A DNA stretch of 64,000 bases from Escherichia coli (lineage in GTDB: Bacteria > Pseudomonadota > Gammaproteobacteria > Enterobacterales > Enterobacteriaceae): assembly GCF_003334315.1 (NCBI RefSeq), contig NZ_QOWR01000016.1; one strand, given 5' to 3'. Under the pieces are notes generated by a model. It ran no database searches and was not told the DNA's origin. It saw only the letters and a program-made list of their open reading frames with translations. The position numbers and the translations under genes are program-made. Of this stretch, positions 60,580 through 60,979 are shown one piece after another. Numbering within the stretch: the stretch's first letter is position 1; each line of letters opens with the position of its first letter.

Positions 60580-60979
60580 ATATAACCTTATCCTTGTAAC
60601 AAGTACATAATCATATTTAATGTGAATATATGTTCAACATCTTTAAAGATTATACAGGCAGAAATATTTCATTGAACATTAAATAGACTGAACTTTAAGA
60701 TTATATTTATATGCAAATATTTGATATTTTCATTATATTGATATCAATTTTCTATGTATTCAAAAGAGTATAAATGCCTGACTTTGCTGCGCCAGGGGGC
60801 GAGTCAGAATACGAGGTGATTTATTAATAGAACAAGTTATATGTATATCTAAAATTAAATTGTTGAACATAACTCCTTTTGCTATCGGCGTTATGTTCAA
60901 CCCAGTCAAATGTTATTTAATATAATGCGTGACTGTTACATAAGTTAATTTAAACATTTTGAGCAAATTTTTCATCTGG

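Follow-up and report, generated by a model that had tools for sequence, protein, structure and literature searches.

The 400 bp that separate agaI from the chaperone-usher fimbrial operon yraHIJK in Escherichia coli contain four copies of a TGTTCAA word, two of them within a perfect 12-bp inverted repeat. The question raised by this locus is whether these repeats are operator sites of a regulator of the fimbrial genes, a hairpin at the end of the aga transcript, the borders of an invertible promoter element, or functionless by-products of AT-rich DNA. It was addressed in a stretch of 64,000 nucleotides of E. coli DNA, hereafter the window. Since both agaI and yraH are encoded on the minus strand, the spacer between them is to be read as its reverse complement, and the features collected in Table 1 are listed in this direction.

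Table 1. Features of the agaI–yraH region, in the order in which they are met along the minus strand of the window.
Feature	Position	Strand	Description
agaI	60980–61735	−	Last gene of the aga operon; final ~10 codons from island DNA
Accessory segment yraK-yraJ-yraI-yraH with spacer	55527–61010	−	5484 nt, GC 45%; from empty-site comparison
agaI–yraH intergenic spacer, AT-rich	60580–60979	−	Regulatory leader of yraHIJK; from composition and literature
Distal 12-bp inverted repeat	60862–60901	−	5' arm 60901–60890, loop 60889–60874, 3' arm 60873–60862
U-rich tail AAUUUAAUUUUA	60850–60861	−	Adjoins the 3' arm of the hairpin; confined to the agaI/yraH-sense strand
Second hairpin, G+C-rich, with U-rich tail	60777–60806	−	Sole call of the terminator scan; −12 kcal/mol, z −1.45
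Proximal upstream copy	60671–60679	−	Reads ATGTTCAAT on the minus strand and covers the −35 position, from about −37 to −29
Putative core promoter CTGTATAAT	60649–60657	−	Consensus −10 hexamer at 60654–60649; invariant in E. coli, the E. whittamii type and Salmonella Victoria (L022)
Proximal downstream copy	60630–60640	−	ATGTTGAACAT on the minus strand; about +3 to +13, start of the conserved leader
14-bp dyad TGAACATATATTCA	60623–60636	−	Conserved leader; identical in the E. whittamii type (L020), 11/14 in Salmonella (L022)
yraH	59995–60579	−	Fimbrial major-subunit-like, PF00419; first gene of yraHIJK

Composition and Published Status of the Spacer

The initial annotation described the spacer as strongly AT-rich relative to its flanks and suggested that nucleoid proteins silence a cryptic fimbrial operon at this place. 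Sliding-window analysis bears out the first statement: the GC content of the spacer is 27.3%, versus 51.2% across the window, of which it is the lowest-GC 400 nt, with only 0.09% of sliding windows equally low. The second is borne out by published data. The agaI/yraH spacer is listed as entry 3285165_325, agaI(+)yraH(+), in Table 1 of the 78 promoter islands of E. coli (Panyukov and Ozoline, 2013; PMC3661553), where it is associated with foreign genes and is marked in the H-NS column with “K,” standing for the Kahramanoglou and Oshima data sets. It is also found among the genomic-SELEX sites of the RpoD holoenzyme, with the flag “HNS” (PMC3946193). Since the spacer had thus already been catalogued as an H-NS-bound promoter island, the silencing claim is correct but not new. 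In PMC8174762, yraHIJK is counted among the 12 chaperone-usher operons of strain MG1655, with a citation of Korea et al. (2010) as the study that terms these operons of E. coli K-12 cryptic. The literature searched contained neither a yra-specific regulator nor a mapped yraH promoter.

No match with at most two mismatches was obtained in the spacer for TCGATAAATT, the high-affinity H-NS motif. A search for sigma-70 hexamers, simpler than the PlatProm program used by the authors of the promoter-island list, returned two promoter-like sites, which is no excess over the 3.8 in composition-matched shuffles.

The Accessory Island and Its Borders

The position of the spacer was defined by comparison with genomes lacking it. 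In strain 5CRE51 (L001), which has an empty site, the gap between rsmI and agaI is 99 nt long, versus the 5484-nt segment of the window. In genomes without the spacer the similarity ends within the 3' end of agaI, and the island border on this side lies 31 nt inside the gene. The clean empty site and the break in similarity show that an accessory fimbrial island begins with the AT-rich spacer. This island codes for yraH, yraI, yraJ, and yraK only; about 62% of the complete genomes of E. coli carry it and about 38% do not. The spacer itself was found in 3375 of 5426 such genomes (96–100% identity), in which it is single-copy and carries no RefSeq annotation. The yraHIJK segment together with the spacer is accessory DNA of the horizontally acquired type, as is characteristic of the surroundings of promoter islands.

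The locus is also a recurrent target of IS1. In the window, a copy of this element begins at position 63549 within agaB (63549–64000), homology to an intact aga locus ends at 63547, and the galactosamine PTS IIB gene is consequently disrupted in this genome. Insertions of IS1 in or beside the spacer were encountered repeatedly (L029:1–40, L002, L003, L011, and hit H1), several E. coli strains carrying the element between agaI and yraJ or inside the spacer. In a Shigella flexneri contig an apparent terminal inverted repeat of IS1 abuts AAGATGTTGAACAT, between the conserved −10 hexamer and the predicted start of the yraH transcript.

Arrangement and Statistics of the TGTTCAA Copies

Four copies of ATGTTCAA/TTGAACAT and a perfect 12-bp repeat had been reported from the initial reading of the sequence, and all were recovered at exactly the same coordinates. 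The proximal pair consists of ATGTTCAACAT (60630–60640) and ATTGAACAT (60671–60679). The distal pair, GTTGAACATAAC (60862–60873) and GTTATGTTCAAC (60890–60901), forms the perfect 12-bp inverted repeat, the arms of which are 16 nt apart. The copies and their positions hold, but their grouping into two inverted pairs is just one among several possible arrangements: the word is nearly palindromic (TGTT-S-AACA), so that any two copies are direct and inverted repeats simultaneously. When paired in this way, the polarities on the plus strand are opposite, TTGAACA-N24-TGTTCAA in the distal pair versus TGTTCAA-N34-TTGAACA in the proximal one, and the cores are spaced 31 bp versus 41 bp from centre to centre.

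One reading is that the repeats have no function and are neutral by-products of AT-rich, slowly decaying island DNA, spotted after the fact. They could have arisen by small duplications followed by correction of a quasi-palindrome to a perfect palindrome via template switching in replication. Imperfect direct repeats joining the flanks of the copies, a 25-nt pair with 72% identity (D1) and a 12-nt pair with 92% identity (D2), are consistent with old duplications. Furthermore, when the 400 nt were shuffled with their dinucleotides preserved, some 8-mer reached four copies 37 times in 1000 (3.7%), and with 0.13 perfect repeats of at least 12 bp expected per window, one chance case in 64 kb would not be extraordinary. 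Two local counts speak against this reading. A perfect repeat of at least 12 bp with a loop of at most 40 nt appeared in only 1 of 1000 dinucleotide shuffles of the spacer, and with the hairpin held fixed, only 13 of 5000 shuffles contained an arm 8-mer at least twice more in the remainder of the spacer. Across the window the repeat is less exceptional: perfect repeats of at least 12 bp number three versus the 0.13 expected, the other two being ordinary short-loop hairpins. The 8-mer occurs six times in the 64-kb window versus 3.0 expected; four of the six copies are located in the spacer, which leaves two outside it, compared with the 3.0 expected for the entire window. The repeats are statistically unusual for the spacer but not overwhelming for a read of 64 kb.

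Two further repeats adjoin the spacer. The longest perfect hairpin of the window is a 14-bp inverted repeat, AGGGCGTTATCTGA, with a 4-nt loop (59957–59988), located 6 nt past the yraH stop codon and before yraI. It resembles hairpins that follow genes of fimbrial major subunits and set the ratio of subunit to assembly proteins. In addition, a perfect 11-bp inverted repeat, GTAACTTTATT/AATAAAGTTAC (60566–60576 and 60998–61008), flanks the entire spacer, one arm comprising codons 2–5 of yraH and the other being located among the final agaI codons, only 2 nt from the border on the island side. In a read-through RNA these arms could pair and mask the start of yraH.

Variation within E. coli and Related Lineages

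Variation within E. coli was evaluated with 13 haplotypes out of 38 sequences, which differ at 23 variable sites in the 400 nt. The motif copies (44 nt) contain one variable site versus about 2.5 expected; it is a singleton that affects the terminal base of an arm. This difference is not significant, which is compatible with the neutral reading of the repeats. Against the same reading, the neighbourhood of the distal hairpin, 60820–60937, has two variable sites versus about 6.8 expected; the hairpin itself is invariant across the 13 haplotypes save for a common G/A in the loop and the singleton mentioned above. A low-frequency C-to-T change at MG1655 position 3287319, corresponding to 60686 of the window, arose in a line evolved for gallium resistance (PMC6928379), and the nearby C at 60690 is naturally polymorphic (C/T) in the E. 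coli haplotypes.

Two distant lineages were usable for comparison. One is an Escherichia whittamii-type locus (L020, L077–L085), with a YraH protein 86% identical to that of the window and agaI upstream. The other is that of Salmonella enterica serovar Victoria (L022, L023), where YraH is 84% identical (L022) and the operon is located in another genomic context, behind a gene of the DeoR family. A search of genome contigs with YraH for farther orthologues yielded only a contaminant-like Xenorhabdus contig and a 44% homologue in Ewingella. The former, a 2.2-kb contig filed as Xenorhabdus szentirmaii DSM 16338 (L004), encodes YraH residues 110–194 with 100% identity to the window and is probably E. 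coli contamination of the Xenorhabdus assembly. One metagenome scan for distant orthologues gave no match, and a second returned 35 copies of the E. coli type, one with an extra AT in the leader, as well as 11 chance matches. Two apparent homologues, P0015 and P0020 (76% and 65% identity to YraH; L012–L019), were rejected as Logan assemblies of bisulfite-converted E. coli reads: nearly every C is replaced by T in L016–L019, and most are in L012–L015.

Similarity to the E. whittamii-type spacer detectable by BLAST begins only about 170 nt before the yraH start codon. The blocks common to all three lineages are only CTGTATAAT (60657–60649) and the leader AACATAYATTCACATTAAATA...GTACTTGTTACAAGGAT. 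Phylogenetic footprinting, which the initial annotation had recommended, gave a divided result in which the promoter and the leader are kept while the proximal dyad is not, and the motif is missing in Salmonella. In favour of the neutral reading, the E. whittamii type has an imperfect version of the repeats and Salmonella none; the independent enrichment of TGTTCA in the E. whittamii-type lineage points the other way.

The Putative yraH Core Promoter and Leader

Conservation in all three lineages makes CTGTATAAT the most likely core promoter of yraH. Transcription is predicted to start near 60642, 7 nt past TATAAT, which would give a leader of about 62 nt; with MG1655-type coordinates derived as 3348005 minus the window position, this start corresponds to about 3287363. 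The proximal copies of TGTTCAA are placed on either side of the −10 hexamer. In the E. whittamii type the upstream one reads ATGTTTAAC, and Salmonella lacks it. Within the downstream copy, the bases TTGAAC form the −35-like hexamer of a second promoter-like site (TTGAAC-16-TATGAT). As these copies cover the −35 region and the first transcribed bases, they are read as parts of the promoter and leader rather than as a separate operator pair.

The leader also contains the dyad TGAACATATATTCA, which is better conserved than either of the inverted pairs proposed initially. With the ArgR-box core TGAATWWWWATTCA it agrees at 13 of the 14 positions.

Operator Sites as an Alternative

The initial annotation proposed that the two pairs are binding sites of one dimeric regulator. 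This was not supported, because neither polarity nor spacing is shared by the two pairs, Salmonella lacks the motif, and no regulator gene is located nearby; moreover, the proximal dyad is not maintained in relatives and the rest of the window shows no surplus of the motif. No E. coli regulator is known to have a motif that matches the TGTTCAA pairs. Resemblances to sites of TorR, OmpR, ArgR, IHF, and CRP were considered; those to the TorR, OmpR, and ArgR boxes are partial, and none of the five is convincing for the pairs.

In a broader version, the TGTTCAA or TGTT-S-AACA words would be sites of a sequence-specific DNA-binding protein acting as a repressor or anti-silencer of the yra promoter; the core promoter would have such sites on both sides, and two more would lie about 220–260 bp upstream, possibly joined to them by looping. 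Besides the low frequency of shuffles in which the arm 8-mer recurs outside the hairpin, the number of TGTTCA words is in line with this version: four versus 0.31 expected in the E. coli spacer and three versus 0.31 in that of the E. whittamii type (P = 0.003), with distances from the start codon that match between the lineages (−289, about −110/−98, and −57). The first and third copies are each self-palindromic, the proximal copies are located on both sides of the conserved −10, and the spacings of the core centres, 31 and 41 bp, are near whole helical turns. However, the pairs are opposite in polarity and unequal in spacing, the upstream proximal half is changed in the E. whittamii type, and the Salmonella copy wholly lacks the motif while keeping the promoter. 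In addition, the 8-mer is not in excess beyond the spacer in the 64 kb, the island encodes only YraHIJK and no regulator, and population data for E. coli reveal no special constraint on the copies. Binding of a sequence-specific protein to these words is therefore considered unlikely on the balance of these points, and a fuller scheme, in which the TGTTCA cluster is an operator array through which a regulator or anti-silencer would release the cryptic yra fimbriae from silence and to which the distal pair could loop, is regarded as quite improbable.

Phase Variation as an Alternative

The spacer was also considered as a switch of the fimS kind. An 11-bp repeat formed by the first copy (60629–60639) and the third copy (60861–60871) would flank a 221-bp invertible promoter element that controls phase variation of the yra fimbriae. 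The arrangement is suggestive insofar as these perfect repeats enclose a segment with the conserved −10, which adjoins the gene-proximal repeat and reads out across it. Nevertheless, the full-length inverted junction was found in none of the 3361 genomes matching its halves, and on this ground the inversion was rejected. Furthermore, no recombinase gene is present in or beside the island, and in the E. whittamii type the repeat is reduced to about 6–7 bp, so that an invertible element has hardly any probability left. A phase switch of the Pap type, dependent on Dam and Lrp, is ruled out by the complete lack of GATC sites in 60580–60979.

The Distal Repeat as a Proposed Hairpin at the 3' End of aga Transcripts

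The initial annotation had offered a stem-loop downstream of agaI as a second possibility, and for the distal pair this is plausible. The hairpin starts 79 nt past the agaI stop codon, and its fold on the sense strand has a free energy of −18.9 kcal/mol (z −4.7), no shuffle being as stable in two sets of 200. It is followed by the tail AAUUUAAUUUUA with 7 U in 12 positions, preceded by AA between the stem and the U run. The 3' arm and the tail constitute the best-conserved distal block in comparison with the E. whittamii type (identity 74%, versus 45–62% in its surroundings).

RNAalifold analysis with the E. whittamii-type sequence, which provides compensatory-change support from one independent lineage, kept 12 of 13 pairs, with two C-G pairs replaced by U-A, one U-A by U-G, and one pair broken. 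The two compensatory changes, which preserve the stem, speak against repeats devoid of function. The U-G pair is valid in the sense-strand RNA only, and the E. whittamii-type sequence folds more stably in the sense than in the antisense direction (−10.9 versus −8.8 kcal/mol). In this lineage the register of the stem is shifted inward and the U run is farther from the stem. A neutral origin of the repeats is plausible, although we consider it less likely than an RNA hairpin.

The stability of the fold, the U-rich tail on the sense strand only, the compensatory pairs, and the sense-biased fold point to an RNA hairpin at the end of the aga transcript. The hairpin does not conform to a canonical terminator: G-C pairs make up only 4 of the 12 in the stem, the loop has 16 nt, or 10 nt with two inner pairs, and the terminator scan made no call at this position. 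Its d'Aubenton-Carafa score, computed roughly by hand, is negative. With moderate confidence, based on these sequence features, the distal repeat is interpreted as a weak, non-canonical terminator or a 3'-end hairpin of the aga operon. The recurrence of the arm 8-mer twice near the promoter is left unexplained by an RNA hairpin.

The aga operon was presumably silent, for lack of induction, in the media used for the published Term-seq experiments. The tables of RNA 3' ends contain none within the spacer (PMC7815308). They do contain, at MG1655 position 3287795(−), a strong 3' end of an RNA antisense to yraH, the 61-nt sequence of which corresponds to 60161–60221 on the plus strand of the window.

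The second hairpin of the spacer (Table 1) is polymorphic among E. coli haplotypes, at 60799 and 60778. In keeping with a hairpin between the upstream gene and the promoter, the Salmonella Victoria locus has one of its own: a very long palindrome of unrelated sequence, ATACTCGTCATACTTCAAGCTGCA...TGCAGCTTGAAGTATGACGAGTAT, occupies L022:2029–2160, after the DeoR-family gene and before the same fimbrial promoter.

Other explanations of the distal repeat were rejected. A small protein of 36 codons, its frame starting at an ATG of the 3' arm with AAGGAG in the loop before it, can be dismissed because the distance between AAGGAG and ATG is only 2 nt; besides, non-synonymous changes and loss of the stop codon occur in this frame among E. 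coli haplotypes, and the E. whittamii type has GTG and a stop after four codons. A repeated or mobile element is not consistent with a spacer that is single-copy in E. coli and a hairpin that has no match in viral contigs. A search of the spacer against Rfam returned only a plant miRNA model, with E = 2.6–4.3 and far under the gathering score.

Proposed Organization of the Locus

The explanation that we favour combines these elements. The 400 bp are the leader between agaI and the chaperone-usher operon yraHIJK, both read from the minus strand. As the literature and genome comparison show, the leader is the AT-rich front of the island, which H-NS coats and silences as it does other horizontally acquired AT-rich DNA. 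Transcription of yraH would start from the conserved CTGTATAAT, recognized by phylogenetic footprinting, and proceed through the leader of about 62 nt. RNA reading out of agaI would fold into the 12-bp hairpin, followed by the U-rich run, and the hairpin may end or stabilise the aga transcripts and thereby limit read-through into the silenced fimbrial promoter. To this whole account, comprising an H-NS-silenced island leader, the CTGTATAAT promoter, and a distal RNA hairpin that ends or stabilises aga transcripts, we assign about even chances of being correct.

Should aga transcripts indeed be ended or stabilised by the hairpin, the locus would be another case of island DNA providing a core metabolic operon with its 3' end, while protecting a promoter silenced by H-NS against read-through. 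What has been gained is a candidate promoter and leader, with phylogenetic support, for the yra fimbriae, on which little work exists, as well as clear evidence against a fimS-like switch. Present understanding is not changed by these results, and nothing in them would surprise a specialist.

Comparison with Known Systems

The spacer belongs with the promoter islands, a known class of AT-rich, H-NS-bound, and transcriptionally quiet regions located beside horizontally acquired genes; its AT-richness and accessory position were confirmed here. Unlike these shared traits, the inverted repeats of the spacer are not described in the promoter-island study (PMC3661553). With the other H-NS-silenced cryptic chaperone-usher operons of E. 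coli K-12, yraHIJK shares an AT-rich upstream region and H-NS occupancy.

The resemblance to fimS of the type 1 fimbriae lies in perfect short inverted repeats around a promoter-bearing segment just upstream of the gene for the major fimbrial subunit. The spacer differs from fimS in having no inverted form among the 3361 genomes, no recombinase gene, and a repeat sequence that is not the same.

The closest parallel for the distal repeat is provided by intrinsic terminators and 3'-stabilising hairpins, with which it shares a stable fold, a U-rich run, location on the sense strand, and a stem kept by compensatory changes. It differs from intrinsic terminators in its AT-rich stem, a loop of 16 nt versus 3–8 nt, and the AA that precedes the U run.
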